Shown: piece after piece, positions 883 to 47,770 of the stretch
How the letters are laid out: every line of letters starts with the position of its first letter
Position numbering within the stretch: the stretch's first letter is position 1
From: Bacillota bacterium
GTDB taxonomy: Bacteria > Bacillota > JAAYKD01
Assembly: GCA_963666425.2 (NCBI GenBank)
Contig: OY762825.2
Location: 2,816,001-2,880,000 of the forward strand
Length of the DNA stretch: 64,000 nucleotides
Direction of reading: 5' to 3'
Program-made: the position numbers and the translations under genes
Notes under the pieces: model-generated
Databases searched by the model: none
Told to the model about the DNA's origin: nothing
What the model saw: only the letters and a program-made list of their open reading frames with translations

Positions 883-927
883 AGCTACGATATTACGATT
901 ACAACTCCGGTGGAGATGTTCGCGAGG
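883..927 (+). pseudogene. Degenerate rlmD/rumA 3'-end remnant
   Basis: Translates SYDITITTPVEMFAR, resembling RlmD GYE...PVDMFPR. Confidence 0.5.
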
Positions 928-1068
928 AGAAGCATTTTTTGTGTGCCATGCAAACCGAGCCATTATATTCGTGAAGCAAGTACTATCAGATTTTTAGACA
1001 TTTCAAGGGAGAATGAAAACCCTAGAGAGAAACGATATAATGGAATTTTAGAGAAGGAGGCAGTAGTT

Positions 1069-1938
1069 ATGATGGATTTGGAACAGTATCAACTGATTCT
1101 TGAGTCTTCACCAAATATGATATGGAGGGCTAATCTAAGTACAGAATGTGATTACTTTAATAAAACATGGCTTAGATTCACCGGACGCACGATGGAAGAG
1201 GAGTATGGATTTGGATGGGCTAAAGGTGTGCATCCGGACGATTATGACAAATGTGTAAAAATTTATCTTGATAATTTTAAACTTCAGCATCCATTTGAAA
1301 TGGATTATCGTCTGAAAAGATATGATGGTCAATACAGATGGATTAATGATCTCGGGGTCCCTTTTTATGATAAGAATAATAATTTTATTGGCTTCATCGG
1401 CAGCTGCATGGATGTTACAGAGAAAATTGAAGGTCAACTACTCAAGGAGATGGCACAAAATGACAGCTTGTGCCAAACATATAACCGGCAGTATTCTCTC
1501 CAATTACTATCAGAGGTTTTCAACGAAGCGCTCAAAGCCGGGTTGCCACTTTGCGTTTTATTGATGGATATAGACGGATTTAAAATCATTAATGATAATT
1601 ATGGACATAGTTCTGGAGATATAGTTCTCGCAAAAGTTGCAGCCATAGCAAAAAGCGAGATGCGTGAATTTGATATTCTTGGGCGTTATGGTGGAGATGA
1701 ATTTGTAATTGGGTTGGTTCATACGAATTTTGAAGCAGCACTTATGCTCGCTGAACGTATCAGGACTGCAATTGCAGATGCTGAGATAGCTGTTCTTAAT
1801 ATAGCACCCATTAAGGTTAGTGTAAGCATCGGAGTGAGGTGTCTTCAGAGTGAAATGACTCTTGATGAACTCATCAACAATGCTGATAAAAAGTTATATG
1901 AGGCAAAATCAAAAGGTAAGAATACAGTCAAGGGATAA
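1069..1938 (+). CDS. PAS-domain diguanylate cyclase
   Basis: RBS AAGGAGG before ATG 1069; PAS (VHPDD) plus RYGGDEF. Confidence 0.92.
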   Translation: MMDLEQYQLILESSPNMIWRANLSTECDYFNKTWLRFTGRTMEEEYGFGWAKGVHPDDYDKCVKIYLDNFKLQHPFEMDYRLKRYDGQYRWINDLGVPFYDKNNNFIGFIGSCMDVTEKIEGQLLKEMAQNDSLCQTYNRQYSLQLLSEVFNEALKAGLPLCVLLMDIDGFKIINDNYGHSSGDIVLAKVAAIAKSEMREFDILGRYGGDEFVIGLVHTNFEAALMLAERIRTAIADAEIAVLNIAPIKVSVSIGVRCLQSEMTLDELINNADKKLYEAKSKGKNTVKG

Positions 1939-1940
1939 TA

Positions 1941-1970
1941 TGTTCCAGGGGGACGGGGGTGTTGGCACAG
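1941..1970 (+). repeat. 30-bp G-rich core repeat, copy 1 (consensus)
   Basis: tgttccagggggacgggggtgttggcacag, 2 nt after the GGDEF gene stop. Confidence 0.97.
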
Positions 1971-2264
1971 AGTTTCGGTAGCCTCGTTATGCTGAAAATC
2001 GAAAACACCGTCAGTATCAAACCTACAATTTGGTTAAACATGTCTCAGCAAGAAGATTAGGAACATTTAAACGTGCGCGTCTTCGATCAGGCTCGGCGTT
2101 TTTTAGCCAACCTCTGATCTATATCAGCTGCAGCCAGAGCATAAAGGTGTGCGACGTTGCCTTCTGCATGAGCCAGGTTAAAGTGGTCACCAACCATGCA
2201 GTGGTATGTTCTTATGACGACACATGCGGAGTAAGCCGTATTGATGTCAAGGGTGCAGCGATAA
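1971..2264 (+). pseudogene. Decayed rlmD/rumA C-terminal remnant following the repeat
   Basis: Frameshifted translation VFDQARR..LIYISCSQS..CDVAF..HAE..AVLMSRVQR*. Confidence 0.75.
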
Positions 2265-2303
2265 TTGGCATTCGTAAAATAGATAATAAGGGTGCGGTAA
2301 CAG

Positions 2304-3157
2304 ATGGATAGATATTTTGAGATAAAGAAACGCTTATTAAGTATTTGTATTAGCGATGACAACGTTTGTGCAGTAATTGCCATTGGTTCGTCTGTCAGAA
2401 ATTATTCAAGGCAGATGAGTATTCCGATATGGATTTGATTCTTGCGTGTAAAAACCCAGATGAATGGCTTTTTGGCGAACAGTCTGCTAAACTCGGAAAG
2501 ATCAAAATATCGTTTGTCGAACCAACACTCGGTGGAGGGTTGGAGCGAAGAATATTATTTGACGGTTCACTTGATGTTGACCTAATTGTATTTACTCCCG
2601 AACAGCTTGAAACAGCAATAATAAACGGAGTTGCCTCCGAAGTTATGAACCGAGGATATTCCGTGCTATATGACAATATTGGTATTACTGAAATCATTGA
2701 TGACAATGTTGAGATATGTGTTCCTCATGCTGTTATGACCGAAAACGAGTTTATTAATATGGTAGGTGATTTCTGGTTTCATACCATATGGTCATCGAAG
2801 AAAATACTTCGTGGGGAGTTATGGGCAGCAAAAATGTGCATTGACTCATATTTAAAGAACTATCTTCTGAAAATTATCGAACTATACGAAACTTCTTCTA
2901 AACAAAGCGATGTATGGCACAACGGTAGATTTCTTGAAAAATGGGCAGGAGAAGAAATAATTGAAGCGCTTGGTGCGTGTTTTGCTCACTATGAAAAAGA
3001 AGATATTGTTTCAGCACTTATAAACACGGCAATGCTTTTTGGTAAAATTGCTCGCAATGCAGCAGAACTATGCTGTTACGTTTATCCAGCTGAGTCTGAA
3101 GATTATGCCTGCTCGCTTTTGGAAGAGTATTTTCATCATACTGTAAATATCGTCTAG
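2304..3157 (+). pseudogene. Aminoglycoside 6-adenylyltransferase-like nucleotidyltransferase, frameshifted near 2410
   Basis: MDRYF..IAIGSSVR in one frame continues as ADEYSDMDL in another; KKILRGELW and WHNGRFLEKW motifs. Confidence 0.75.
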
Positions 3158-3160
3158 CAA

Positions 3161-3190
3161 TGTTCCAGGGGGACGGGGGTGTTGGCACAG
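3161..3190 (+). repeat. 30-bp core repeat, copy 2 (consensus)
   Basis: Exact consensus, 3 nt after TAG 3157. Confidence 0.97.
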
Positions 3191-3429
3191 ATTTTCGGTA
3201 GCCTGGTTATGCCGAAAATCGAAAACACCGTCAGCATCAAACCCGCAATTTGGCTAAATATGTCTTAGCAAGAAGATCAGGAACATTTAAACATGCAAGC
3301 AGAGTAAAAAAGCACGCGACGATGCACCTTTGCGTGGGCTTGGTTAAAATAGTCACCGGCCAGGTAGTGGGTATGTTCCCCATGAAGATATATGTGGAGT
3401 ATGTAAAATTAATGTCGACGGTAGATAAC
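3191..3429 (+). pseudogene. Decayed rlmD/rumA C-terminal remnant
   Basis: Tail similar to 1971-2090; ends GQVVGMFPMKIYVEYVKLMSTVD. Confidence 0.75.
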
Positions 3430-5305: not shown

Positions 5306-5341
5306 AAAAAGACTTTTCCTCTCGAGGGAAGAGTCTTTTTT
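5306..5341 (+). terminator. Rho-independent terminator
   Basis: aaaaagacttttcctc-tc-gagggaagagtcttttt hairpin with T-run after the amidohydrolase gene. Confidence 0.8.
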
Positions 5342-5484
5342 ATTGTGAGCGTAGCCAATTTATGACGCGAAGCGCCAAGTCATTCATCATCGGAGGACTG
5401 AGATGATAGATGGTATGGCATCAGATAATTTATTATGTGTTGGTCAAACATATAACGATGCATTGAAAGAAAAACTGAATGACC

Positions 5485-5570
5485 TAGTGGTAGTCGCAAA
5501 ATTCGCGACAACCCAGGGGCAAAACTTATCAAGAAGATAATTATGCTCTGGATATGATTATCTCTGTAAT
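5485..5570 (+). pseudogene. RhuM virulence-protein-family fragment
   Basis: VVAKFATT..GKTYQ..NYALDMIISV across a frameshift. Confidence 0.55.
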
Positions 5571-6699
5571 GATTTCCGAGTCAAGACCGGGAGAAAAGGA
5601 AATGATGATAAGCGTTATATGAATTGTTTGATGTAGAATAGCAAATTTGATTTTTATCTTACCAAGCACAGATTTACGAAGCAAAAAAAGAAGAAGTGGT
5701 GGAGAGGCTAAAACGAGCCTTTTTACCGCTTCTCATTATTTTGGATTATTCTGGAATTGACAAGGGATTACTAACTTTATTATAAGTGAGTTAATTTTAA
5801 AAATAAACCCGTAAATTACGCGAGTCTTCATAATGTTACAATTTTGTTAACAATACAGAACAATAAAATTTAAAGAATCGTAATGACGGTAAATTTAGAT
5901 GAAAAAGAAAAATAGTTCGCGAAATAAAGCAAAAGCACAGAGAGCACATAAGATTTAATATGCATAAATGTCGTAATATGTTGTAATGGAATGATCGTTT
6001 TGAATTACAACTAGGTTTTAATACTTATTGTTTCCTAAGGTTGAAAGGGGAAATCCTTAGTTTGTTGAAATATTTGAATGAAAATATTGTATTTCCCAAA
6101 GCGGTTGTACGTCGTGGTTATGAATAAAATTGAACTTTAGGGAACAACTGGATTTTGGAAATGTATTGGAGCCATGAGCTTGAAGCCATGGAGGCAGAGT
6201 ATTGGCTCACACTGTATAACACTGAAATCTAGATTAAAATTAATCAACCGCATAATTCGATTAAATAGGCTTCTTACAAGAATGTCAGGAAAAACAATTC
6301 ATCTTTCATATTGTTAGGTAATATTCCGCGAAATCTCATCGGTCGCAGTCAAAGGTGCGGAAAAGTTTTGTAGAAACAAGTAATCAATGCTGTTTTTAAG
6401 CCACCAAGACAATGTCTAGCTCAAATTCCTGTAGATAACCGCTAAAGCCGGAATCGAAACATTAGTACGCTTGCAATAAAAATACAATGCATATGGCATT
6501 ATATTAGTCTATCCTCAAACCAACGCTGTTAGTAGAATCGATATCAAATACACCTCCGACAACAATGTTAAGCTTGATATTTCATTCGTTGATCTTAGAA
6601 ATGTGGACAATAGTATTGCTAAGTTGTCGGCGGAGGTGTGGAGTTGATATCAAAAATAATCGATAAAACCGCTTACGAAGTTATTCGGAGGTTATCACA

Positions 6700-9459
6700 A
6701 TGTCTTTGAAGATTGATCAGCAAATAAAAATTATCGATAAAGCAATTTGCCGACACATCAGCCATTTCAAGGTTTCTGGCAGAGGTGCGGCCTCTCAAGA
6801 CATTTTAAAGGAATTAAGAGATTTTGTTGAGCATATAATGCTGAAAGTCTATGCTCAAGGTGGTGATATAAAGGATGATTGGGAGATCATTTGTGAAGCT
6901 ATTAAATATGTTAAACCGCTATCAAAATGGAAAAGCCTCACACGCTTCCACGATCTTTTGCAGATCTCTGTTTCGCATTATACACCCGATGAGGAAAGCT
7001 CAGAGCGGTTGATGTTGAAATATTATATGCATTTGCTGAAAATAAAGGACATTATACACGATAGGTTTTCGCTTGACGTGCTTACTAACCTTGATAAATT
7101 CCCATTGAATACTGATACCACCCTGCAAGAGTATTACAGTAAAATTGCCAAAAAGGTAGATGCCTATCCATTCCAGAGAAATCTGATTGCTGACAAATAC
7201 TACATCAGGAAGATTAAGCCTTTCTTTGTTAGTGGAAAAGTATACTACGAAGTTACATTTACACCTGCAAACGATTATGCGAGCAAATTTGAAAGAGTAA
7301 TTGCTTTCACAAGTTTGGAGGTAACTGATTTCTACGCTATAAGATTTGCCTTTATCAACAGTAGCATTGACATTCTTGGCAAAACAATGCCTATTCTCAT
7401 TATAACAGGCTGGGAAGTGGCTATCCGTGATTGTGAGTTTTATAACTTCACAAGACTTATCAGGGGTAACAAAGCAGAAACTGGTTATCTAGAGCAAAAA
7501 GGCATAACAAGGTTTTTAACCTCAACTGGTTTTAGTCTAGTAGAACTCATCGAATTTTCCGATGATGATTTCTTAAAGGTTAAAGCGGCCGCAACACAAA
7601 GAACTAAGGTAGCTATTTTCTTTCAAGACTTGGAACGGTGCCGAGAGATAATTAAGACGAATGCGCTAGGGAGTAATCTCTTGCGGTATTTGTTATATCA
7701 TATGAACAACAAGGTAATGAAAGCGCAATACAATTCTGAGGCCAACACTTTATTGTCCGGGCTTTTTGTCCAGTATGGCAGCATTCCTTTCGATCGTATA
7801 CCGTTTAATTTCAATCCGCGAGAATGTAAGCCGCGATTGCATGATTTGTTTGCTTGCATACCTATCAGCGGGCGTGAACACGAACTGCTTGCACGGTTTG
7901 TGAGAAATAATACTGAAATAAACGGGCAGCTTTTTACCCCAATCAGTGAGGCAAAAATGCGCTTCGGAGATGATATTGAATCATTAGTTACTGCATATTA
8001 TAACGCTTTATATTACAAACATCGCCAAAATAGCAAACTGGTAATTGAAAATGGCCACATATTCATTAATGAATACAAGAATGATGTCCGTTACATCATC
8101 GATGAATTTGCAAAGTTGGCAAAAAATGGTATTCTGAATTATTCCGAAGCGGTAAGAGTGTGGTTGAACGAGCCAAACAATGGTGTTGACTGTGAACAGA
8201 AAAAAATCGCACTTACCCAAATGTTCGAAAATTCGAGGGTTGCTCTGGTTTACGGTTCGGCTGGAACAGGTAAATCTACATTGATAAACCATATTGCACA
8301 GTTCTTTGACAAAAAGAAAAAGCTTTTTTTAGCACATACTAACCCTGCAGTTGAGAACCTTAAACGGCGAGTAAAATCTTCGGAATGCACCTTCTCAACG
8401 ATAACAAAATTTCTAAAACCGAGCCGCAACATTCTGGATTACGACATTATTGTTGTTGATGAGTGCAGTACCGTCAGCAACAGCAATATGAGGGGGATTC
8501 TCGAAAGCTTGTTCACAAAGGTGGTTACAGACGGATATAAACTCTTGGTCTTGGTCGGGGATACATACCAGATAGATTCCATTGAGTTCGGAAATTGGTT
8601 TGATATTGCCAGAAAATTTGTCCCTGATGCTTCGGTTTGCGAATTGACGATACCATGGCGTAGTAGAGAAATGGGTTTATTGCAACTTTGGGAAAGAGTC
8701 AGGGGGATGGATGGTAAGGGACTTGATGCTGTTCTTGAGTCCTTAACCCATCAAGGTTATACTGCGAATTTGGATGATTCGATTTTTTCTGCTTCCAAAG
8801 TTGACGAGATAATCCTATGTCTCAATTACGATGGGCTTTACGGTATTAACAACATCAACTGTTTCTTGCAAGAGAATAATCCAAGCACCGCGATAACTTG
8901 GGGTATTTTGCAGTATAAAGTCAACGACCCAATTCTGTTTAATGATTCAGATCGCTTCAGTCCCGTGATTTATAACAATATGAAGGGACGGATTAAGGGT
9001 ATCGAAATTCTCGATAAAAGCGCTGTCACAGAACGCATACAGTTTGACATAGAATTGGACGTGGTATTGATGAGTACTGACACCTTTGGACAATCCTTTC
9101 AGTTGCAACCTAATGCACCTAGCGGGAACTCTGTTATTCGTTTTGTAGTAACTAAAAGAAAAAGTGCGGATGAGGATAATCCCAGAAGTCGTTCTTCAAA
9201 AGAAGATATTGTACCTTTCCAAATTGCTTATGCCGTGTCTATTCATAAAGCACAGGGCTTAGAATATGATTCGGTTAAAATTGTCATCACAGATGAGATT
9301 GATGAATTGATAACACACAATATTTTCTACACAGCAATTACCCGTACGAGAAACAAGCTAAAAATCTACTGGACACCAGAAGTGGAAAAGAAAGTGCTTG
9401 AAAGCATAAAGCCTAAGGATATTAGTAGAGATGTATCCCTACTGCGGAACTATCTGTGA
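6700..9459 (+). CDS. RecD-like SF1 helicase with long uncharacterised N-terminus
   Basis: GSAGTGKS, VVDECS, LVGDTYQ, AYAVSIHKAQGLEYD and YTAITR motifs. Confidence 0.88.
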   Translation: MSLKIDQQIKIIDKAICRHISHFKVSGRGAASQDILKELRDFVEHIMLKVYAQGGDIKDDWEIICEAIKYVKPLSKWKSLTRFHDLLQISVSHYTPDEESSERLMLKYYMHLLKIKDIIHDRFSLDVLTNLDKFPLNTDTTLQEYYSKIAKKVDAYPFQRNLIADKYYIRKIKPFFVSGKVYYEVTFTPANDYASKFERVIAFTSLEVTDFYAIRFAFINSSIDILGKTMPILIITGWEVAIRDCEFYNFTRLIRGNKAETGYLEQKGITRFLTSTGFSLVELIEFSDDDFLKVKAAATQRTKVAIFFQDLERCREIIKTNALGSNLLRYLLYHMNNKVMKAQYNSEANTLLSGLFVQYGSIPFDRIPFNFNPRECKPRLHDLFACIPISGREHELLARFVRNNTEINGQLFTPISEAKMRFGDDIESLVTAYYNALYYKHRQNSKLVIENGHIFINEYKNDVRYIIDEFAKLAKNGILNYSEAVRVWLNEPNNGVDCEQKKIALTQMFENSRVALVYGSAGTGKSTLINHIAQFFDKKKKLFLAHTNPAVENLKRRVKSSECTFSTITKFLKPSRNILDYDIIVVDECSTVSNSNMRGILESLFTKVVTDGYKLLVLVGDTYQIDSIEFGNWFDIARKFVPDASVCELTIPWRSREMGLLQLWERVRGMDGKGLDAVLESLTHQGYTANLDDSIFSASKVDEIILCLNYDGLYGINNINCFLQENNPSTAITWGILQYKVNDPILFNDSDRFSPVIYNNMKGRIKGIEILDKSAVTERIQFDIELDVVLMSTDTFGQSFQLQPNAPSGNSVIRFVVTKRKSADEDNPRSRSSKEDIVPFQIAYAVSIHKAQGLEYDSVKIVITDEIDELITHNIFYTAITRTRNKLKIYWTPEVEKKVLESIKPKDISRDVSLLRNYL

Positions 9460-9792
9460 GATATTAAGAGGTTAGGATTTTAACTCAATCATTTATGTGC
9501 TCTTTCCGGGAACAGGTTGAGTTATATTACTACAACTTGGACGTTTTAACGCACCAGTGTGCCCATAAAATCACGTTCAATCTATTACATTGCACGGAAA
9601 ATCAGTATAAACATACCAAACATCGTCTGCACCCCCACTGGTCAACATTTAGATTAGCATATACAACGAATTGAAGAAAACTATTTTCATTATGCTATTC
9701 TTATCATAATTCAGCAAGAATTGCCAGCATAATGAGGTTGTGTTCAAGAAATATACAAGCTGATAGATATGTTTAAAAATAATCCGGAGATA

Positions 9793-9830
9793 AATGCAAA
9801 ATATACTGTATTTTGCATTATCAGTATAAT
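9793..9830 (+). promoter_or_regulatory. Perfect 11-bp inverted repeat (operator-like) next to TATAAT
   Basis: aatgcaaaata-tactg-tattttgcatt followed by tataat at 9825, upstream of ATG 9854. Confidence 0.5.
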
Positions 9831-9853
9831 TTACTCTTTTGTGAGGTGAAAAT

Positions 9854-13291: not shown

Positions 13292-13324
13292 TAAGAGCTA
13301 AGAGGACAGGGTGTTTGCAAGATT

Positions 13325-24172: not shown

Positions 24173-24345
24173 CTGGGTAGATACGAATAATGTTGATATC
24201 CATACTGAAGATATTTTGAATAAATCGATTTTCCGCCAAGGGGGGTAGCAGAGTAACACGACCTCTTTTTTACTGCTACAAGCCGCATGGAGACTGCCGT
24301 GTTGATGTGTGCATAAGTGATTTTTTATGCAGTAAGGAGAAACAA

Positions 24346-30539: not shown

Positions 30540-30558
30540 GCAAATGTTGACGCAATAG
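30523..30558 (+). pseudogene. 11-codon stub of probable AbiEii toxin, cut off at the core repeat
   Basis: MDQIIEQMLTQ* overlapping the antitoxin 3' end, preceded by an RBS-like GGGGA. Confidence 0.6.
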
Positions 30559-30559
30559 A

Positions 30560-30589
30560 TGTTCCAGGGGGACGGGGGTGTTGGCACGG
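30560..30589 (+). repeat. Core repeat, copy 4
   Basis: One mismatch to consensus. Confidence 0.96.
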
Positions 30590-30804
30590 AGTTGGATAAT
30601 CCAGTTTTACTGAGATCCCAAAACGCTTTATGTATCATATGCGCAACTTGATCAGATAAGTTACTTTTCAGCTGTAATCCGAACACCCTGATGCGCGAGG
30701 CTGCCTTTCTGCGTGAGCTGGGCTCTGAAGTGGTCATTGGTCAGGCAGTGGATAGGTTCCCCATGACAATGCACATGGAGACTGCCGTGTTGATGTGTGC
30801 ATAA
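30590..30804 (+). pseudogene. Best-preserved rlmD/rumA C-terminal remnant
   Basis: 30667-30804 reads FSCNPNTLMREAAFLRELGSEVVIGQAVDRFPMTMHMETAVLMCA* in one frame. Confidence 0.88.
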
Positions 30805-34421: not shown

Positions 34422-34440
34422 GAAACTAGAGATATTGAAC

Positions 34441-34600: not shown

Positions 34601-34708
34601 AAGAACGAAAAGAAGTAACGTCGTTACGGACAATGACGGTATTCATCGTAGCAGTAAGAAATATAGTTCGAAGACAGATAAGAAATCATTATTTGATGAG
34701 GTGAAGTC

Positions 34709-35379: not shown

Positions 35380-35620
35380 GGATGAAATCAATCAACTATA
35401 TATTCATAATGACTATCAAAGAAAAGGATTGGGCACAAAATTTCTTGAGATTGCTAAAAGCAATTCTAATGGTAGGTCGTTCCTCTATACTTTCGAAATT
35501 AATCGTAAAGCACAACTGTTTTACGAAATGAATGAATTCAAAATCCTTAGCAGAGACAATGCTAAAGAAGAGAATCTGAATGATATCAAATACGAATGGG
35601 CTGAAAACGGTGAAAATTAG
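35380..35620 (+). pseudogene. GNAT fragment
   Basis: INQLYIHNDYQRKGLGTKFL..TFEINRKAQLFYE. Confidence 0.7.
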
Positions 35621-35680
35621 GAAGTGGATATTTTCTCTATAGAATACACATGTTGAATCCATAAAGCAGCTTTCGGTGTC
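35621..35680 (+). pseudogene. rlmD/rumA 3'-end remnant
   Basis: EVDIFS..THVESIKQLS across a frameshift; marks the start of a duplicated block. Confidence 0.55.
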
Positions 35681-35794
35681 AGTTTCAACAATACATTGCA
35701 CCTTACGGTGAAATGCATTATTATAATGGAAGAGGAGTTTGCGTTATCACGAACTCATTTCAGAAAATTTAAACCAAAAAGGAAGTAATACAAA

Positions 35795-35926
35795 ATGGCA
35801 AACAAGAATATTAGAAAAGAAACAAAAAAACCTAAGAAATCGGCAAAGGCACCGAGTGTATCATCAACACCACAACCAATTATGGTTCAACCTGAATTAA
35901 TCAAAAAGGTAAAAAAGCCTCAATGA
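35795..35926 (+). CDS. 43-aa Lys/Pro-rich small protein (copy 1)
   Basis: RBS AAGGAAG; MANKNIRKETKKPKK...; mostly synonymous differences from 39386-39517. Confidence 0.8.
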   Translation: MANKNIRKETKKPKKSAKAPSVSSTPQPIMVQPELIKKVKKPQ

Positions 35927-36009
35927 TTTTCTCTGATTGCTAAAGAATTGGACATTTGGGAAAATGTCGCAATGGCAAATACTGCTTATTTTTTAAGGGA
36001 GATTTTATT

Positions 36010-37344: not shown

Positions 37345-37363
37345 GAACAAAGAGTGGGAATAG

Positions 37364-37834: not shown

Positions 37835-37864
37835 TGTTCCAGGGGGACGGGGGTGTTGGCACAG
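37835..37864 (+). repeat. Core repeat, copy 6 (consensus)
   Basis: Exact consensus. Confidence 0.97.
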
Positions 37865-37889
37865 ACTTGCTGTCACCCACTCAACTCAA

Positions 37890-38825: not shown

Positions 38826-39045
38826 ATAAATCTCTCCTTTTGGGTTCGTTTTGATTTTTATGAATGAATTCCAATCTGTGTGAATATGGGATCACTGATA
38901 AGTTGCACGCTGTTTTTAACAGATGTATAAGATATCAAGCGCCAATGTTTGTATTCTACTATCGATTCCCATAATATTCAATACTGATTTTCTGATTTTA
39001 TAATAACCTAACACTTCAGACATCAGAATTAGCCTATCGTTTCAT

Positions 39046-39262
39046 CGGGTGTTGATACAGAGTTGAAAAATCTAGTTATGCTGAAAACTAAAAACGCTCT
39101 CACAACCGTATGCACAACTCAATCCAATTAGCTTCTTTTCAGTTGCGATCCAAATAGACAGTGCGTGTCATTGCGCTCCTGCGTGAATTGGACTATATAG
39201 TGGCCATTAGTTAGGTATTGGTCATGCTCTCTATAGAATACACATGTTGAACCCATAATGTC
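39046..39262 (+). pseudogene. Partial core repeat plus rlmD remnant
   Basis: cgggtgttgatacag, then shared tail, then FSCDPN..IALLRELDY..THVEPIM. Confidence 0.75.
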
Positions 39263-39385
39263 CTTAGGCGTCGGTTTCAACAATGCATTGCGCATTTCGG
39301 TAACATGCCTTATAATAGTAGAACACGCATTGTGTCATCACGAATCATTTCAAGAAATCTAAAATCGAAAAGGAAGTAATACAAA

Positions 39386-39517
39386 ATGGCAAACAAAAAT
39401 ATTAGAAAAGAAGCAAAAAAACCGAAGAAATCGGCAAAAGCGCCTAGTGTATCATCAGCACCGCAACCCATTATGGTTCAACCTGAGTTAATCAAAAAAG
39501 TAAAAAAACCTCAATAA
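39386..39517 (+). CDS. 43-aa Lys/Pro-rich small protein (copy 2)
   Basis: 41 of 43 aa identical to copy 1. Confidence 0.8.
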   Translation: MANKNIRKEAKKPKKSAKAPSVSSAPQPIMVQPELIKKVKKPQ

Positions 39518-39573
39518 TATTCTCTGATTGCTACAACGGCAGGGCAATTAGAATTTAAAGGGGAGTTAAGAAT

Positions 39574-40083
39574 ATGTCGATTAATCAACAGAGAACAGAT
39601 TTAATCAAGTTAATTCTTGAAGATGAAACCATCGCAGCCGAAGAAGATGAAATTTTGCACATGCTGCTAATGGAGCAAGTTTCTAAAGATCCTGTAGCTG
39701 TTAATAAAGAGAATGTCACATTTGGTCAAAAAGCAGCAGACAATCTTGCTAAATTTGCAGGCAGCTGGGTTTTCATCATAATATTTTTTGCGATATTGGC
39801 TTCCTGGATTATATTGAACACAGTAATATTAACAAAAGCGTATGATATTTACCCGTTTATACTGCTTAATTTAATTTTATCATGTCTCGCTGCAATTCAG
39901 GCACCCATTATAATGATGAGCCAGAATCGTCAAGAAGAAAAAGACAGATTAAGAGGCATAAATGATTATAAAGTAAACCTAAAAACGGAGATTATGATTG
40001 AGGATATTCACGAGAAATTAGATTCAATTATAGAAAACCAACAAGAACTTTTCGAAAGAATCAATTCTTTAGAGAATAAATAA
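39574..40083 (+). CDS. DUF1003 membrane protein
   Basis: FAGSWVF, YPFILLNL, IQAPIIMMSQNRQ. Confidence 0.9.
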   Translation: MSINQQRTDLIKLILEDETIAAEEDEILHMLLMEQVSKDPVAVNKENVTFGQKAADNLAKFAGSWVFIIIFFAILASWIILNTVILTKAYDIYPFILLNLILSCLAAIQAPIIMMSQNRQEEKDRLRGINDYKVNLKTEIMIEDIHEKLDSIIENQQELFERINSLENK

Positions 40084-40140
40084 CATGCTTGATTTACACC
40101 ACCTAGAGCATTATAATTGCTTTAGGTGGTGTAAATATAA
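40081..40140 (+). promoter_or_regulatory. Orphan copy of the AbiE-like promoter/operator
   Basis: Matches 29881-29940; the ATG is replaced by ATA and the core repeat follows. Confidence 0.85.
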
Positions 40141-40170
40141 CGTTCCAGGGGGACGGGGGTGTTGGCACAG
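40141..40170 (+). repeat. Core repeat, copy 7
   Basis: cgttccagggggacgggggtgttggcacag. Confidence 0.96.
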
Positions 40171-40306
40171 ATTTGGGTAACCAAGTTATACTGTGATATA
40201 AAAACACCTTCAGAATCAGACCGGAAATTTGGCTTGAGTATGTCTAAGCAAGATAAAGATATGATTTGATAAATATTCTAGGGATGCTAAGAGTGGGAGT
40301 GACAAT

Positions 40307-40903
40307 ATGAAAATAGATGCAGGCAGAAAATTATATTCATTGAGAGAGATATATATGATCGTATATAACGGGATACGTTCTGCCCCGTACATGTCAAAGG
40401 CAAAGCGAAATAACGAACTTAATTCTGAATTCATTGAAAGAATAATGCTTGCCGTTACCGAAGTAAACGGCTGTGAGTTATGTTCATACGCACATACAAA
40501 AATGGCTTTAGAGGCTGGAATGAGCAGCGAAGAGATTCAACATATGCTTTTAGGGGTTATGACAGAAGTTCCATCAAACGAGCTGCAGGCTATCATGTTT
40601 GCGCAGCATTATGCAGACAGCAGAGGAAAACCATCCAAGGAAACATGGGATCGCATCATCGAAAGCTATGGCTTGACTAAATCGTATGGTATACTTGGCG
40701 CAATTCGGATCATTATGATTGGAAACGTTTATGGAATTCCATGGGGTTCATTTTTTAATCGATTCAAAGGCAAACCGGATAAAAGAAGTTCAATGCTGTA
40801 TGAAGCTTTAATAATAATTCCGGGAAGTATCCTCATCCCTTTCGCTATTTTGCACGCCATTATAGCTTCATTGCTGCGATTCAAGATAATTGATTTTTCA
40901 TAA
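40307..40903 (+). CDS. Carboxymuconolactone decarboxylase/AhpD-like protein
   Basis: ERIMLAVTEVNGCELCSYAH. Confidence 0.85.
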   Translation: MKIDAGRKLYSLREIYMIVYNGIRSAPYMSKAKRNNELNSEFIERIMLAVTEVNGCELCSYAHTKMALEAGMSSEEIQHMLLGVMTEVPSNELQAIMFAQHYADSRGKPSKETWDRIIESYGLTKSYGILGAIRIIMIGNVYGIPWGSFFNRFKGKPDKRSSMLYEALIIIPGSILIPFAILHAIIASLLRFKIIDFS

Positions 40904-40990
40904 CGAGCATCTGAGAAGCTAATTTCTGAAGTAGGCCTATCACACGATTGTTTTTATATTTTAGTGGAAACAAAGGAAGGAGGAATTTAA

Positions 40991-41662
40991 ATGGCAAAAT
41001 TAGTCTGTTCCGTTTGTGGCTACATTTATGATGAGTCAAAGGGTATTCCAGCAGCGGGCATAGCTCCCGGTACAACATGGGAAAATATCACTAACAACTG
41101 GGTTTGCCCACTTTGCGGTGCTCCTAAATCTGCATTTGAAAAACAGGATGAATCTGCAGCATCTCCGGAAAAAATAACGATGTCTGTGACGGAGTCGCCT
41201 GCTGATCTGAAGGAGATGTCTGCATTGGAGATCAGTGCGCTATGCACGAATCTGGCGCGCGGCTGTGAAAAACAATATCAGCTGGATGAAGCAGCTCTCT
41301 TTCGGGAATTAGCCGGATATTTCAGAACAGCATCAGCGCCTGCAAAGGATCCAGATCATGGCAAGCTCATGGCTCTCATTGAAAAAGATCTTAAGGAAGG
41401 TTTCCCAAGCGCTCATACTGTGGCGTCGGAGGCAAATGATCGAGGTGCACTCCGTGCTCTGGTCTGGAGCGAGAAGGTTACGCGCCTTTTGAAATCCCTT
41501 TTAACTCAATATCAGATAAAAGGCGAATCCATGTATGAAAATACGGACGTATATGTCTGTACGATCTGCGGATTTATCTTTGTAGGGAACAACCTGCCGG
41601 ACATATGCCCTGTATGCAAAGTGCCTAATTGGAAGTTCGAAAAGATTGAAGGGAAGCAGTAA
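40991..41662 (+). CDS. Rubredoxin-domain protein
   Basis: CSVCGY..WVCPLCG at the N-terminus; CTICG..CPVC at the C-terminus. Confidence 0.88.
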
Positions 41663-41663
41663 A

Positions 41664-42140
41664 ATGGCTGATAAATATGCGGTAAGAAATATACGTTTGT
41701 GTACAAAAGACTGCTTATGCCTATATGTCTGCCCCACCGGTGCGACAGATACAGAGAATAGTATCATTGATATTGCGAAGTGTATCGGGTGCGGCGACTG
41801 TGCAGACGCCTGCCCGGCCGGTGCGATTTCTATGGTGCCAAAGGTATATCCAAAGCAACAGGACAAAACTGAGCCGGTTATGAATGCACTCAAAACATTG
41901 ATGCACAGCAAATCGGAACAAGAGAGTATAGCTGCTGGATTGCCTGGGAAATTGGCTCTCGCAATTGAAAAATCCAATCACATCATGGCGGAGGACATTA
42001 TCCGTGAAGCGGGATATATGCTGCCGCAAAGCGAAAATACTCAGAAATTTTTAGAAGCACTGCTTGATCAAGATCATCCACAAGAATTTCCTAAAGAGGC
42101 TGTGAAGAAATTATTAGAAGCTTTCAATAAAATAGAGTAG
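41664..42140 (+). CDS. 4Fe-4S ferredoxin-domain protein
   Basis: CTKDCLCLYVCP and CIGCGDCADACP. Confidence 0.88.
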   Translation: MADKYAVRNIRLCTKDCLCLYVCPTGATDTENSIIDIAKCIGCGDCADACPAGAISMVPKVYPKQQDKTEPVMNALKTLMHSKSEQESIAAGLPGKLALAIEKSNHIMAEDIIREAGYMLPQSENTQKFLEALLDQDHPQEFPKEAVKKLLEAFNKIE

Positions 42141-42142
42141 CA

Positions 42143-42170
42143 TGTTCCAAGGGGACTGGGGAGCCGGGTA
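42143..42170 (+). repeat. Core repeat, copy 8 (degenerate 3' half)
   Basis: tgttccaaggggactggggag, 2 nt after TAG 42140. Confidence 0.8.
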
Positions 42171-42203
42171 AGTTGAATTAGAATTTGCAGAGGTGTTTTG
42201 TAA

Positions 42204-42737
42204 TTGATTGAAATCAGAAGGATTGCTGAAACTACTAAAAATGATATTAATATTCCGAATGAACCTTTTACCTTGTGGGGAAAAATGATACCAACCTACG
42301 ATGGCAATAAATGGGCGTACACAACCGAGAAATTTGATGAGAATAAAACCAGTGAGATGGTATTTCCCGATGAAAACTACGATTTTGATCTACTAAAAAA
42401 AGAGTGCTTCTTTGTTGGAGCCTATAATGAGTGCGGAAAGTGTGTAGGACTTGCGATTTACAGGCGGGATTTGCTTAAATATTTATATCTTGATGATTTA
42501 AAAGTATGTAAGGAGTATCGAAGCCGCGGAATCGGTATGCGATTGCTGGATGAGGGTAAGAAAATTGCTGCCGAAAATGGTTATCAAGGCATTTTTACAA
42601 TCGGTCAAGACAACAATCTTTCAGCATGTCTATTCTATATAAAATCCGGATTTGCAATAGGTGGATTTAATACACACCTCTATCGAGGAACCAAGCAAGC
42701 CAACAAGAGTAATGTTTATTTTTACATCGATGTCTAA
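42204..42737 (+). CDS. GNAT, streptothricin acetyltransferase-like
   Basis: YRSRGIG, QDNNLSACLFY..GFAIGG..HLY. Confidence 0.75.
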   Translation: MIEIRRIAETTKNDINIPNEPFTLWGKMIPTYDGNKWAYTTEKFDENKTSEMVFPDENYDFDLLKKECFFVGAYNECGKCVGLAIYRRDLLKYLYLDDLKVCKEYRSRGIGMRLLDEGKKIAAENGYQGIFTIGQDNNLSACLFYIKSGFAIGGFNTHLYRGTKQANKSNVYFYIDV

Positions 42738-42867
42738 ATTTTACACTGCTTCAGTATAGCGATGAATTCCAGTTTGCTGTTGTGTTTTCATACTGGCACT
42801 GCCGGAGAAGGTAAAGTGAGTAATCTATTTAAGTAAGAAGCGTTTATATTGTGTGAGGAGGATTTAT

Positions 42868-43785
42868 ATGAAAGCAATTGTGGAGATGCTAAATAAGAAC
42901 TATCCCTTTGAGATAGACCGCATTGAATTACTGCGTGATATGGGGAGTACGTCTTACACCGCATTTTCCGGCAGCAATAAATACTTCTTGCGCGCAATTA
43001 AGCCTGCGCTTCTTGACACAGCGGTTATCGGTACCAACATTCAAGTGTTTTTGCAAAAGCAAGGCTTTCCGGTGCCGCCGATTATCTTTACAAATGATGA
43101 CTTACATTATGTAAAAGATGAAAACGGACTGTTCATTCTATATGAGTTTATTGAGGGTAACGACTGCAATCCGGAGCAGGACGCGGAAGCCATCGGAGCG
43201 CTGGTGGGCAGGCTTCACAAAGAAATGAAAATCTATACCGGTGAGCTTGTTCAACGGGACAAGCATTTTTACATTGGAAGATATATTGAAATTCTGCGGA
43301 AAAAAGGATATCCCAGAATAGATGAATACTCAAAATATGGTGATGATCTTTGGGACGAAATCAAGGAATTGCCACGAGGATATTGCCATGGCGATCTGTA
43401 TGAGGGTAATATACGAAAAGGATCTGACGGTAAGTTATATATACATGATTTTGATACCTCCTGCGAAGGTTTTCCGATGTATGACCCAACTTTGATCTGT
43501 GATATGACCAAATATTTTGATTTTGATGAGAGCAATTTTGATCGGTCAAACAAAGTGTTTTCCAGGTTTCTATCAGAATACAAAAAATACATTCCCCTTA
43601 GTCAAGCGGAAATAGATGCCTTTCATGCCTTGATTGCCATACAACATTTCTCTACCCAAGCTACGGTGATGGAGATATTTGGCATTGATTGTATTGTCGC
43701 TACAGATATGGACAATCAACTTGAGTGGCTGTACCGGTGGCGCCAACAATGTGCCAGGGGAACGGGGGTATTGGCACAGAGTTGA
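42868..43785 (+). CDS. APH/homoserine-kinase-like phosphotransferase
   Basis: CHGDLYEGN, HDFD; the last 11 aa come from the repeat and the 3 nt after it. Confidence 0.85.
   Translation: MKAIVEMLNKNYPFEIDRIELLRDMGSTSYTAFSGSNKYFLRAIKPALLDTAVIGTNIQVFLQKQGFPVPPIIFTNDDLHYVKDENGLFILYEFIEGNDCNPEQDAEAIGALVGRLHKEMKIYTGELVQRDKHFYIGRYIEILRKKGYPRIDEYSKYGDDLWDEIKELPRGYCHGDLYEGNIRKGSDGKLYIHDFDTSCEGFPMYDPTLICDMTKYFDFDESNFDRSNKVFSRFLSEYKKYIPLSQAEIDAFHALIAIQHFSTQATVMEIFGIDCIVATDMDNQLEWLYRWRQQCARGTGVLAQS
43750..43779 (+). repeat. Core repeat, copy 9
   Basis: tgtgccaggggaacgggggtattggcacag. Confidence 0.92.
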
Positions 43786-43975
43786 AAAGTCTCGGTTTAT
43801 GCTGAGATTCGCAACATCATCAGTATCTGGATTGCATCCCGATCAAACATGTTTCTTTTCAGCTGCAACCCGAATCCGCTGTCAATCGGCACCGTACTTC
43901 TGCGCGGATTGGGTTATCAAGTGTCACTGGCCAACCGATTGATCTGGTTCCATGATGACGCAGGTTGTAACAGTG
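43780..43975 (+). pseudogene. rlmD/rumA C-terminal remnant
   Basis: FSCNPNPLSIGTVLLRGLGYQVSL..QPIDLVP..MTQVVTV. Confidence 0.8.
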
Positions 43976-44297
43976 AATAAGGAAATATGGATTAGAATCC
44001 TGAAAAACTATAATCTGGTGCATCCGGAGGATGTGAAACCGGCTTATCCGAAAAAAAGAAAAAGCGATGAAAGAGGCACCTGAGCATTTTAGAACGATTT
44101 ATAAAAATATAATAATCAATATAGGATATGGCTTTATTGAATTTTCAATAAGGTTTAATTCCGTAATAGAATATAATTAATCTAGTTTTGGTAAATAGCC
44201 TAATTTTCTGTGCTGATGCGAGAGAATATATGATATTTCTTTCTATGCAACGTGCTGGATATAGCAGAGATTTTATATAGATCAGAAGGAGTCTTAA

Positions 44298-44990
44298 GTG
44301 ATAGAACTACTCAAAACAAAAAAAGCTATTTTCTTTGATGTGGGATATACGCTTGATTATCCCGCTTCGGGCGATTGGATGTTTACAAATAAATTCTACG
44401 AACTGGCGGGCGAGAAGTATTATAAGTACGGCGAAGCTGAAATACAAAACGCGAGGAACAGAAGCTTTGAATATCTCGAAAAAAACCATCTTGTGAGGAG
44501 TCTTGAAGAGGAATATAATCAGTTTGCATATTTCTATGGCGAGATATCTCGAATTCTCGACCTTGGACTTACAGAAATTGAGATAAGAGAGATTGCTCAC
44601 GATCGTACTTACAATATGAAAAATTACATATTCTATCCAAATGTTGCTGAAATATTGGAAACACTTAGTAAAACGCATAAGCTCGGTGTTATTTCAGATA
44701 CTTGGCCGAGTATAGAGCAGCAGCTTCAATCGATTGGTATTCTTGACTATTTTTCAGTAAGCACTTATAGCTGTTTCGTCGGAGCTTTCAAACCCGATAA
44801 ACGCATGTACCTAGATGCCCTTGGGAAAATGGGATTTCCCGCTGAGGATACAGTATTTATTGACGACAGTCGACAAAATCTAGAGAGTGCCGCGGCGTTC
44901 GGTATAACGCCTATACTAATCGCTGCAAACCCTGCTTCAGACATTGATGTACCTTTTTTGAAAATTCATTCTCTTAAAGAGCTTTTGTAA
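44298..44990 (+). CDS. HAD-family hydrolase
   Basis: FFDVGYTL, FKPD, FIDD. Confidence 0.88.
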   Translation: MIELLKTKKAIFFDVGYTLDYPASGDWMFTNKFYELAGEKYYKYGEAEIQNARNRSFEYLEKNHLVRSLEEEYNQFAYFYGEISRILDLGLTEIEIREIAHDRTYNMKNYIFYPNVAEILETLSKTHKLGVISDTWPSIEQQLQSIGILDYFSVSTYSCFVGAFKPDKRMYLDALGKMGFPAEDTVFIDDSRQNLESAAAFGITPILIAANPASDIDVPFLKIHSLKELL

Positions 44991-45374
44991 TTAAAGAAAT
45001 CCCTTCCGAATCGATCAAAGGTTCAGGAAAAGCAAGGCGAGAAAGCCAAAAAGAATTATGAGATCACTTATTTATCTTCATAACCAGTGTCATACGCGAC
45101 GTGGATTTATGAGGGTGTTAGGTGTACTATGGAGTAAATGGGAGAAAATGAAAATGAGAAATGTTGTATCTTTGGAGAATTTGACAAGGAGATTTGGTCA
45201 ATCTGTAATATATATAACAATAAATAGAACTAATGATTTATAGATACGAATATGTATATGTCATTTATTAATTCAAACATTTATCTCATGGGTTTTTAAC
45301 CCAATTCCTGAATTCCTGCATTATCAAACTGTTATAGTTGATAATGGATTTTTAAAAAAAGGTGAAACAAAAAG

Positions 45375-45937
45375 ATGGAAAGCATAGAGTGGAAAAAACA
45401 GAAGCACCACATACTGAAAGGTGAGACAATTGAACTTGTTCCAGTGCAAAAGAAGATATGGGTTTTATCTGTATTGAAGAAACTGATACAAAATTATGGC
45501 AATATGAAGAATATATAGAAACCGACAAAAAATGCATTCTGAAAAAGTTTACTGATAGAATTGATCAAGATAATGTTTTTGATTTTATTGTTAAACTCAA
45601 TGTAGATGGTCAAGCAATAGGAATAGTATATATATGGAAATATAGTTTGAACCGAAAGAGTTGGGAAATTGGATATGCTATATTACCTGAATATCAAGGT
45701 AATGGATATTGTTTAGAAAGTGTAAAGCGATTATTATCATTTGCTTTTGATGAATTGGATGCCCATAAAGTGGTAGGTATGTGCCATAGTGATAATATTA
45801 AATCGGCTTCAGTAATGCAAAAAGCAGGAATGTCAAAACAAGGAATATTTAGAGAAGAATATTTATGTCAAGGCAAGTGGGTAGACCAATTCTATTTTAG
45901 TATTTTAGAACGAGAATATGATAATAATCGAATTTAG
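45375..45937 (+). pseudogene. RimJ-like GNAT with a frameshift near 45450
   Basis: MESIE..LKGETIELVPVQ continues in another frame as EDMGF..EIGYAILPEYQGNGY. Confidence 0.65.
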
Positions 45938-46217
45938 TTTTTAATCTACAGGATCCGTCAAAAGTTTTGCGCTTTTTCTAGCTGTTATTACGAAACCGAG
46001 TCGTTTTCATACAAACAGTGCTGCGATCCTGTCATACTGCTTAATTCCGCATTTCAAATTACATTAACGCCTTTGCAACGGGATTTGCTGCTGGACGGAG
46101 AATGGAAGAAACCGATTATACAGGTTTGGAACAGGATACCGGGTTTTCCTTTGATGATTACGCGCCGCGTAGAGCGAAGTGGTTTCCGCAGCCGCTTTGC
46201 GTGAAAGAGAGGAAGTT

Positions 46218-47024
46218 ATGAAGAAACTCGTTTTTATCGAAGGGGTATCAGGTGTAGGCAAATCCACCACGGTAATGAAGCTTTGTGATGCTTTGAATGG
46301 CCACGGCTTTCGGTCTGTCTGTCATTTGGAAGGCGATACGGATAATCCTGTGGATTTCTTTCACTGTGCTTATTTGACAAAAATAGAGTTTTCTCAGTTG
46401 TTGCAGAATTATCCGAGCGATACATGCGTGCTGAAGAATAACAGCATTTCAGAAGCCGATTATGTGCTTGTCCGTTATGGTAACCGCAACACAACCTATT
46501 TCACCCCACCGCTTTTCGATGTATTAAAAATGTATGAGGGGTTTTATAAACCCATAAAGCTGATTGCCATTGAACAATATACAAAAGTTTTTACTGACAG
46601 TTGGCGACGATTTTTACGGCAAGATCAAGGTAACACAGACTTTGTGATTGTTGACGGCAGCTTTCTCTATCATCGTGCCAATGATCTGATACAGAATTAC
46701 AATGCTACTGATGAAATGATTGCTGCACACCTGAAAACATTGCTTTCGGCGATGTTGCCATACACTCCGCTTCTCTTCTACCTTTCTTCAAATGATGTCG
46801 GTGCGCAGCTGATTCGAGCGCGAGAAAGCCGCGGACAAGCTACGGCAACCAAAGCTCAAATTGCTTTTGAGACAGTGAGAAAAAACCGGCAAACTCAAGT
46901 ATTGAAATTGCTGCCTATACATGCACATATCATCGACATCTCAGACGGTTGGGAAAACGCGATTAATGATATGCTGGGTATTATCTTGTGCCAAGGGGAC
47001 GGGGGTGTTGGCACAACTGGATAA
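46218..47024 (+). CDS. P-loop nucleotide-kinase-like protein
   Basis: FIEGVSGVGKST; C-terminus CQGDGGVGTTG comes from the repeat. Confidence 0.78.
   Translation: MKKLVFIEGVSGVGKSTTVMKLCDALNGHGFRSVCHLEGDTDNPVDFFHCAYLTKIEFSQLLQNYPSDTCVLKNNSISEADYVLVRYGNRNTTYFTPPLFDVLKMYEGFYKPIKLIAIEQYTKVFTDSWRRFLRQDQGNTDFVIVDGSFLYHRANDLIQNYNATDEMIAAHLKTLLSAMLPYTPLLFYLSSNDVGAQLIRARESRGQATATKAQIAFETVRKNRQTQVLKLLPIHAHIIDISDGWENAINDMLGIILCQGDGGVGTTG
46987..47016 (+). repeat. Core repeat, copy 10
   Basis: tgtgccaaggggacgggggtgttggcacaa (perfect 8-bp stem). Confidence 0.94.
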
Positions 47025-47161
47025 GCTAGGCTTAAATTGAGATTCGTGTCATCTGCAGAATCCGGATTGCAACTCGTGACGCGAAGTGTCTAGGTATCCA
47101 TCATAACCTTGTATAGGCCGGGTAATGATGATGATAAACTTGAATTTATGGGAGATGTGTT

Positions 47162-47620
47162 ATGAGCAGTTATATTATGGACCTGAGAAAGAGGATAGGA
47201 CATCAGACAATTATCATGTGTGGAGCAAGCATCATTATTGTTGATCAAAATGGGCAAATGCTTCTGGGAAAAAGAACCGACAATCATCAATGGGGATACT
47301 TTGGCGGTTCCGTAGAAATTGATGAAAAGGTTGAAGAGTGTGCGAAGCGTGAACTTTATGAGGAAACAGGGTTAACAGCGGATTCGCTGGAGTATTTTAT
47401 GGTTAACTCAGGCCCTGAAGCACATTATCGATATCCAAATGGTGATGAGGTTGCCAATGTTGAAATTGTGTATATATGTAGGAATTATCATGGTGAACTG
47501 AAGCAACAGGATGAAGAAATAGAGAAATTAAAGTTTTTTGCAATAACTGAAATAAAAATTGACGAAATATCTCCGCCAATTCGACCGGTTATAAGAAAGT
47601 ATATTGAAACATACAAATAG
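47162..47620 (+). CDS. NUDIX hydrolase
   Basis: GGSVEIDEKVEECAKRELYEETGL Nudix box. Confidence 0.92.
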   Translation: MSSYIMDLRKRIGHQTIIMCGASIIIVDQNGQMLLGKRTDNHQWGYFGGSVEIDEKVEECAKRELYEETGLTADSLEYFMVNSGPEAHYRYPNGDEVANVEIVYICRNYHGELKQQDEEIEKLKFFAITEIKIDEISPPIRPVIRKYIETYK

Positions 47621-47737
47621 CAGTATCTTTTCAAAAGTAGGCGCGAAGCGGCTGATGGTTTTTCTTTGACGAGAACCTGATATACTTTCATAATATACAG
47701 TAAAATGTATTTGAAGTGGAATAGGGCACTACCTGCT

Positions 47738-47770
47738 ATGGAGACGGTTTGCGTGACCGCCAAGCGATAG
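47738..47770 (+). pseudogene. Short rlmD-end-like remnant
   Basis: METVCVTAKR* just before the next gene's RBS. Confidence 0.4.

Follow-up and report, generated by a model that had tools for sequence, protein, structure and literature searches.

Remnants of the rlmD 3′ end recur through a genomic island in which no integrase is found

Introduction

Elements that are integrative and conjugative (ICEs) and those that are integrative and mobilizable (IMEs) can accumulate in tandem at one chromosomal site and decay there to cis-mobilizable elements (CIMEs), as the available text of PMC5704250 describes for the ICESt1/ICESt3 fda locus and for the tRNA-Lys locus of S. agalactiae. The rlmD/rum gene has been reported as a hotspot at which phage-ICE tandems occur (available portion of PMC13651849). 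According to the accessible part of PMC4701971, CTn5 of C. difficile and the streptococcal ICEs and IMEs that target rumA each rely on a single serine integrase and leave repeats of 2-21 bp; part of the integrase gene takes the place of the 3′ part of rumA, so that RumA has an altered C terminus. The tycheposon islands of Prochlorococcus, as presented in the available portion of bioRxiv 10.1101/2020.12.28.424599, target tRNA genes, and integrase-bearing elements have been found there. Here we analyze a stretch of 64,000 nucleotides (the window; G000:C1:2816001-2880000, + strand) that lies just downstream of an intact rlmD gene and in which decayed copies of the end of that gene recur on one strand. 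Positions without a contig name are in window numbering.

The locus resembles each of these systems in part; the comparisons hold for the available portions of the sources. As in the ICE/IME/CIME tandems, the series follows the 3′ end of a conserved gene that is intact, direct repeats delimit the units, and mobility genes have been lost. Unlike CIME tandems, in which two or three units are usual, it contains at least nine remnants, keeps no integration or conjugation gene in any unit, and has units as small as 1.2 kb; no cognate integrase is present in the assembly, and the arms that flank the remnants carry a repetitive extragenic palindrome (REP) shared with the one congener searched. The length of the series, the absence of any recombinase from the island together with the near absence of recombinases from the genome, and the fusion of the junctions to this REP are what make the locus unusual.

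A preliminary description of the window, made from the sequence alone, had related it to the rumA elements of Firmicutes. This kinship extends to the target gene family and, judged by the nearest matches, to the broad phylum. In contrast to the serine integrase, short repeats and altered RumA C terminus of those elements, we find no serine recombinase, repeats of 120-135 nt (~135 nt for the full tail) and a live gene whose end is restored and normal. With tycheposon islands the locus shares an arrangement in which new elements would push older ones inward, the company of partial target copies and degenerate elements, and adaptive or defence cargo; it differs in that the target is the end of a protein-coding gene and that no integrase was found.

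Results

Copies of the rlmD 3′ end follow the intact gene

A Pfam scan of the whole assembly revealed a single full RlmD/TrmA-family gene, located just upstream of the window on the + strand, where the preliminary description had predicted it:

G000:C1:2813062-2814519, + strand: intact rlmD, an ORF of 485 aa with a PF05958 match of 58 bits; its stop lies 1,481 nt before the window

The encoded protein is 94% identical to RlmD of the congener G001 and its C terminus is normal; the target gene is thus intact at the proximal edge of the array. Downstream, the window holds eight copies of the last ~135 nt of rlmD, all on the same strand as the gene. Five are near full-length, two are truncated at the 5′ end (24286 and 35617) and one is weak:

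2114..2252, + strand: remnant 1, carrying two frameshifts, with 73% identity to the live tail and homology from ..LIYISC; nhmmer match at 2112, E 5.5e-11
3294..3426, + strand: remnant 2, 69% identical, without the first ~14 nt, with a stop and a frameshift; nhmmer match at 3312, E 2.5e-9
24278..24309, + strand: 5′-truncated tail, the last ~30 nt including the stop, at the left end of a duplicated cassette; E 28 when taken alone
30661..30804, + strand: best-preserved tail, 73% identical in nucleotides and 71% in amino acids, its frame open to its own stop; nhmmer match at 30664, E 6.5e-18; the next ORF begins at 30795
35617..35664, + strand: 5′-truncated tail, the last ~48 nt, E 4e-6; runs into a 275-nt leader shared with the 39131 copy
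39131..39262, + strand: tail remnant, 65% identical, with several frame breaks; nhmmer match at 39121, E 1.3e-10
43850..43976, + strand: tail remnant, 64% identical, with a frameshift; tblastn E 8e-4, nhmmer match at 43846, E 1.5e-6
50443..50484, + strand: very degenerate tail start, 58% identity; E 0.12 genome-wide, 0.003 within the 89.6-kb region

A ninth copy lies outside the window, at 64915. All nine copies on C1, which is 2.9 Mb long, lie downstream of rlmD and read along the + strand; further copies occur only on C4, a variant contig of this locus that is described below.

The nhmmer values come from a single query, the last 200 nt of rlmD plus 30 nt, run against the whole genome. This search also returned the ninth copy (at 64896, E 5.5e-5), and the next-best match elsewhere on C1 had an E of 0.31. 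Iterating the profile added the copies at 35617 and 50443. A whole-genome tblastn search with the last 80 aa of host RlmD gave matches at 30670-30795 (E 5.9e-15; 71% identity over 42 aa), 43834-43923 (E 8e-4) and 3243-3426 (E 0.003), and weak ones at 2114-2252 (E 0.66, in two frames), 32331 (E 7.6) and 39164 (E 23). The best fragment, a piece of 45 aa, aligns to positions 311-354 of the 357 in the PF05958 profile at 20.4-20.7 bits (E 2.8e-4 for the 20.4-bit match), which is below the 23-bit cut-off. As both the host protein and the C-terminal part of PF05958 match, the remnants are, by alignment, fragments of the RlmD/TrmA C terminus. Chance and low complexity are rejected on the genome-wide E-values and the restriction of the copies to a single strand and a single locus. 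The short tail at 24286 is real because it is a 97.7% identical paralogue of the end of the 30660 copy, and the one at 50443 is credible mainly because it is placed exactly behind one of the arms described in the next section.

These results bear out much of the preliminary description. Its translation of 30667-30804 is exact, those beginning at 43858 and 2114 are as written up to the frameshifts that break them, and the alignments to RlmD that it expected at 30667-30804 and 43858 are significant. Seven of the ten remnant sites that it listed are real; the other three (883, 32382 and 47738) gave no match or an E of at least 6.5 in the profile search and are at chance level.

Remnants are joined to conserved arms that open with a REP hairpin

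The copies at 30660, 39131, 43850 and 50443 resemble rlmD from one shared point, TCAGCTG (codons ..SCNP), as far as the stop codon; in the 2114 copy and in the copies on C4, which are of the B-type defined below, the likeness starts 12 nt earlier. Random duplication would not give such a common start. Upstream of this core, the copies resemble one another, not rlmD, through a conserved arm of 100-175 nt. Two arm subtypes, A and B, have their first ~85 nt in common (E-values are from an nhmmer arm profile):

1939..2113, + strand: B-type arm, REP core at 1949-1968, then ~150 nt of non-rlmD sequence up to the core; E 2e-12
3157..3293, + strand: B-type arm with REP; E 2.9e-12
30558..30660, + strand: A-type arm with REP, its first base being the point where C1 and C4 diverge; E 3.2e-15
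39047..39130, + strand: A-type arm, REP part degenerate; arm profile and alignment
40139..40230, + strand: B-type arm with REP, no tail after it; E 7.7e-10
43746..43849, + strand: A-type arm with REP; E 5.2e-11
49630..49731, + strand: B-type arm with REP, no recognizable tail; E 3.7e-9
50318..50442, + strand: A-type arm with REP; arm profile and alignment

The spacers had been described as decayed rlmD ends. The rlmD tails are indeed present, but these alignments show that each spacer combines a REP hairpin with a conserved non-rlmD arm and an rlmD tail. We considered whether the arms are decayed upstream parts of rlmD; when the 30660 copy was read through one stop with X, its Pfam alignment was still confined to the tail, and the DPPR-like look of the REP translation is unsupported. 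We give no weight to a possible 6-bp inverted repeat that flanks the core, since only the 50443 junction has it in perfect form and the other A-type junctions have it in part.

The hairpin that opens the arms, GTGCCAAGGGGACGGGGGTGTTGGCAC, is 27 nt long and is repeated 110 times in the genome. Twenty of these 110 copies are in the island, where 3.0 are expected (p 2e-11). All but one of the 20 are on the + strand and none is in an inverted doublet, compared with 34 of the 90 copies elsewhere. A candidate cognate enzyme is encoded far from the island:

G000:C1:435359-436096, outside the window: REP-associated tyrosine (Y1/HUH) transposase-like gene, with a PF01797 match, flanked by 27-nt REPs

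Against NF047646, the model for REP-associated tyrosine transposases (RAYTs), the product of this gene at C1:435.7 kb scores 78.1 bits, just under the cut-off of 80. Because 110 dispersed hairpin copies occur together with a Y1-transposase gene that they flank, we assign hairpin and transposase, on these sequence features, to a REP/RAYT system. The likeness extends to the frequent inverted doublets; unlike the REPs of such systems, those in the island are single, share one orientation in all but one case, and are fused to an arm that abuts rlmD remnants.

Elsewhere in the genome many REPs form inverted doublets or tandem runs, such as four in a row at C1:469065-469184, and a second REP-associated transposase-like stretch lies at C8:4493-4825. 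The REP-rich interval C1:435-484 kb was examined as a possible second array and rejected, as it consists of ordinary intergenic REP doublets around the RAYT gene. The sole arm-like copy outside the island (C1:1,208,650-1,208,907, minus strand) lies between an aminotransferase gene and a MerR gene; it consists of a REP and ~130 nt that mix A- and B-type parts, with no rlmD tail adjoining.

Divergence of the remnants increases with distance from rlmD

In order of rising distance from rlmD, the copies are 73, 69, 73, 65, 65, 64, 58 and 63% identical to the live tail. Identity therefore falls with distance, a trend that the preliminary description had proposed to look for (Spearman rho -0.88, p 0.004, n=8, the eight points not being independent of one another). 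The A-type tails are 58-73% identical to rlmD and 57-63% identical to one another, which fits separate displacement from the live gene and not copying of copies. In the proximal copies at 2114, 3294 and 30660, differences are in excess at third codon positions (p 0.02-0.04), a bias that is not seen in the distal copies. Together with the frame of the 30660 copy, which is open to its own stop, this bias suggests that the proximal tails were once coding gene ends and were still coding during part of their divergence.

Certain copies duplicate one another. Nucleotides 24278-25488 match 30766-31976 at 97.7% over 1,211 nt, a recent duplication of a unit that spans from inside the tail to the last base of a REP. 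Similarly, 35617-35942 matches 39211-39533 at 83.8%, with the 35617 and 39131 tails sharing 82%, and the 2114 and 3294 copies are 72% identical (82% in C4). The preliminary description had spoken of about ten serial integrations. The pattern of the array fits such a series; however, since three of the ten sites are at chance level and at least two pairs are duplicates (24286/30660 and 35617/39131), the number of independent insertion events is nearer six than ten.

The island is foreign in composition and varies between strains

The island extends for at least 88 kb, from the rlmD stop to the end of C1, and carries about 75 inserted genes, with almost every ORF on the + strand. GC content falls from 50-53% upstream of rlmD to 36-44% in the island, against 47.2% for the genome as a whole.

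Contig C4 (32 kb) carries a variant of the first 37 kb of the island. It is 95-99% identical, has three segments replaced, and could represent strain heterogeneity or a true second copy. Where C1 has PDC-S53, PDC-S73 and a truncated hsdR, C4 has a complete type I restriction-modification system (hsdR, S, M, S). C4 has AbiEii where C1 carries REP, arm, tail and a cassette. This second version was compared with window positions 5309-13323 and 15861-24296, and a different defence-like block, with Hsp70-like and Mrr genes, stands on C4 where C1 has PDC-S06 together with glycosyltransferase and carbamoyltransferase genes. In C1, an orphan AbiEi antitoxin-like gene remains at 29937-30539; its AbiEii partner, present in C4, is replaced from the REP at 30558 onward.

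One congener genome, G001, was available for comparison. DNA likeness ends ~20 nt before the rlmD stop, the G001 contig ends 1 kb (1,056 nt) after rlmD, and the two array genes next to rlmD in our genome are matched in G001 only by 35-41% paralogues. No extra tails were detected in G001 by whole-genome BLAST or by a profile search on five contigs, and no integrase-bearing element was seen at its rlmD end. In a 2.8-kb metagenome contig from a relative that is 83-86% identical (L080), an rlmD remnant of ~225 nt with one frameshift, one stop and a REP before it lies near a homologue of the array gene at window position 78.5 kb. Among 11 more distant relatives in the phylum, one, G036, carries on contig C3 (L099) a single 44-nt remnant of the rlmD end (E 1.5e-4) 15 kb downstream of rlmD. 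The interval between contains a truncated MobA/VirD2 relaxase gene, an IS200, an AAA-subtilase pair and an ABC transporter accompanied by a response regulator. It yielded no integrase and looks like a decayed mobilizable element at the same site. Neither an array nor an integrase-bearing element was found in any of the 11.

In at least seven of the 36 other matching genomes (G005, G006, G012, G022, G025, G029 and G032), the rlmD 3′ end is within ~300 nt of a contig end, that of G006 being inferred from the range of the locus, which hints that the region after rlmD often breaks assemblies. We also considered contig joints in public runs as possible signs of excision (e.g. 40173-50339, 47017-48832 and 37863-48840). 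Each links one REP with another through sides of 20-31 letters, and we attribute them to assembly-graph effects.

Discussion

In the reading that we favor, at a probability of roughly 0.55, elements accumulated in tandem at the rlmD 3′ end, decayed after insertion and were later reshuffled at repeats. The end of rlmD would be a long-used insertion hotspot, at which each element recombines at one point in the last ~140 nt, near TCAGCTG. By supplying a replacement gene end, the element would leave rlmD whole and displace the earlier end downstream, behind its own conserved right arm. Repetition would then yield same-strand junctions of arm, core and old tail, with the newest beside rlmD and the oldest furthest away. 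Loss of integration and transfer genes would convert the elements to CIME-like units, in which att sites are kept and mobility genes are gone. Insertion sequence (IS) transposition, duplication and truncation of units, and replacement of segments at repeats would have remodeled the island later. Observations in its favor are the intact rlmD directly upstream, the confinement of the copies to its strand and locus, their order and common start, the conserved arms, the identity gradient, the foreign composition, the differences between strains, the remnants in relatives, and the precedents for accretion with decay to CIMEs and for rlmD/rum as a hotspot. Campbell-type homologous insertion would produce this topology as well, and neither array nor genome contains an integrase; insertion by a site-specific integrase that is no longer present is therefore a step that we infer.

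Several observations weigh against this reading. A mobility-gene scan (Pfam on 80 window ORFs, 25 downstream C1 ORFs and 32 C4 ORFs; NCBIfam on 18 window ORFs) returned IS transposases only; integrase and resolvase domains were absent from the window, from the 22.6 kb that follow it and from C4. The units are without integration and transfer genes in the same scans, and the earlier remark that they carry no recombinase holds. The whole assembly, which is 98.5% complete with 6.85% contamination and from which unbinned mobile elements may be missing, encodes one full tyrosine recombinase and a 98-aa fragment. The full enzyme is Xer-like, is encoded among housekeeping genes at C1:2.137 Mb, ~0.68 Mb from the array, and scores 92.5 bits against the integron-integrase model, for which the cut-off is 265. 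The serine recombinase families PF00239 and PF07508 have no match in the genome.

Searches beyond the genome point the same way. Arm plus tail had no match in phage and plasmid collections, which yielded no integrase-bearing element with the arm. Nor was such an element present among the rlmD loci returned by rlmD-protein scans of genome and metagenome contigs, which could reveal arm elements solely where these adjoin rlmD and which returned mostly distant (34-39%) Lachnospiraceae-type loci and two short contigs from near relatives. The starts of the remnants are also not uniform: the 64915 copy reaches further upstream than TCAGCTG, and the L080 remnant starts ~90 nt earlier (..DCAVFDPP). Only two of the six C1/C4 breakpoints fall at junctions, the first precisely at the 30558 REP and the second within a tail, at 24296, and none falls at the core; the other four are unrelated to junctions. 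The distance gradient consists of few, non-independent points, and the duplicated copies reduce the number of separate events. Finally, the arms look home-grown and not imported, since BLAST with a 261-nt query found the REP in the congener G001 and not in the family genomes G002, G004 and G005; in G003, the query matched only at that genome's own rlmD end.

Many of these observations would be accommodated if accretion occurred without an integrase, which we consider possible, though clearly less probable than integrase-driven accretion. Circles would be excised from a donor array by recombination between two direct repeats (tail/tail or REP/REP), each carrying one repeat and its cassettes. 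RecA-dependent (Campbell-type) entry into the resident rlmD tail, or into another repeat, would duplicate the homologous stretch, and unequal crossing-over would shuffle the units. The available portion of PMC13651849 reports that phage-ICE fragments integrate at such hotspots in a RecA-dependent manner. The lack of an integrase in array and genome, the variable remnant starts among relatives, and the restriction of the arm REP to our genome and its congener among the family genomes searched are as expected under this scheme. REP, arm and tail together span 250-300 nt, long enough for homologous recombination. The C1/C4 breakpoints at a REP edge and inside a tail, the bounds of the duplicated 24278-25488/30766-31976 unit (tail interior and REP end), and the truncated tails at 24286 and 35617 are likewise consistent with it. 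However, the origin of the first tail copy and the shared TCAGCTG start are left unexplained, and the closeness of the A-type tails to rlmD and the distance gradient fit repeated entry at the live gene better than free shuffling. Moreover, at 57-73% identity the copies are too divergent to recombine efficiently by homology at present.

It is unlikely, in our judgment, that the island is a live, integron-like gene-capture platform of a Gram-positive anaerobe. Docking would take place at the rlmD end, with the composite REP-arm-core site as the cassette boundary, and recombinase-less cassettes would be inserted and excised in trans by the REP-associated HUH transposase, by the lone Xer-like enzyme, or by an enzyme on an element outside the assembly. 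Like chromosomal integrons, the island is a long array of small cassettes in one orientation, some with a single gene, punctuated by repeats and placed beside a fixed anchor, from which read-through could drive expression of the first cassette; its cargo, rich in GNAT and toxin-antitoxin/defence genes, is also typical of them. The enrichment and uniform orientation of single REPs in the island, the RAYT-like gene flanked by REPs and the two rearrangement breakpoints exactly at REP edges add to this likeness. Unlike chromosomal integrons, the island has no intI beside it and shows no evident attC-type palindrome at its junctions, and its repeats derive from the end of the anchor gene. Activity of the platform is a prediction from sequence. 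Junctions fold no better than shuffled sequence in five of six cases (z -0.06 to -0.87, and +0.56; the sixth has z -2.2), and Rfam has no gathering-level match in the window. HUH or Xer insertion would not duplicate 135 nt of the target, and the REP-to-REP joints in public runs are such as assembly-graph artefacts give.

Slightly less probable still is a purely local history, in which a single ancient duplication of the rlmD end was followed by tandem duplication of the REP-arm-tail module while other genes arrived between the copies through IS elements or illegitimate recombination: the clear mutual copies (2114/3294, 35617/39131 with its 275-nt leader, and 24286/30660) and the arms common to several junctions would fit, but the A-type tails are no closer to one another than to rlmD, the third-codon bias of the proximal copies implies time as coding sequence, the composition of all 88 kb is foreign, the congener lacks the first genes of the island, and a separate, unexplained route would be needed for ~75 genes that are nearly all in one orientation.

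If serial insertion at the rlmD end is correct, the island would be an unusually long, clean and age-ordered fossil record of insertion at one protein-coding attachment site. It would allow insertions to be dated, the rate of mobility-gene loss to be followed, and the reshuffling of defence and drug-modifying-like genes at REPs and gene-end repeats to be seen. Accessory and defence islands of little-studied anaerobes could also be sought at the rlmD end. The locus raises the question of how an island of ~75 genes turns over between strains in a genome with almost no site-specific recombinases.

Other features of the island

Genes of the island encode GNAT acetyltransferases, ANT-, APH- and Arr-like enzymes, HAD and NUDIX hydrolases, and kinases. 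The smallest unit (2114-3294, 1.2 kb) contains a single ANT-like gene. Defence candidates are PDC-S53, PDC-S73/nSTAND3-Mrr, a truncated type I restriction subunit, PDC-S06, a GajB-like helicase and AbiEi. Three insertion sequences or fragments were located in the window:

34435-34701: IS3 fragment
51925-54257: IS21
57784-59352: DDE IS

Genes of the IS110 family number 12 on C1 (e.g. at 92951, 94971 and 1538929), none of them in the island; ten are full-length (390-aa frames) with identical Pfam-domain scores and two are shorter.

The leader of ~275 nt that follows the 35617 and 39131 tails (35665-35942 and 39263-39533) is 84% identical between its two copies, contains a sigma-70-like -35/-10 pair seen by eye, and has no Rfam match. 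It sits upstream of unrelated genes, encoding an amino-acid permease and a DUF1003 protein, and could be a shared regulatory RNA or promoter module.

Beyond the window, at C1:2894022-2894851 (78022-78851 in window coordinates), a DUF4846 gene is split into two ORFs of 110 and 161 aa and is probably a frameshifted pseudogene. In L080, the genes that neighbor the DUF4846 homologue differ from its stop codon onward.

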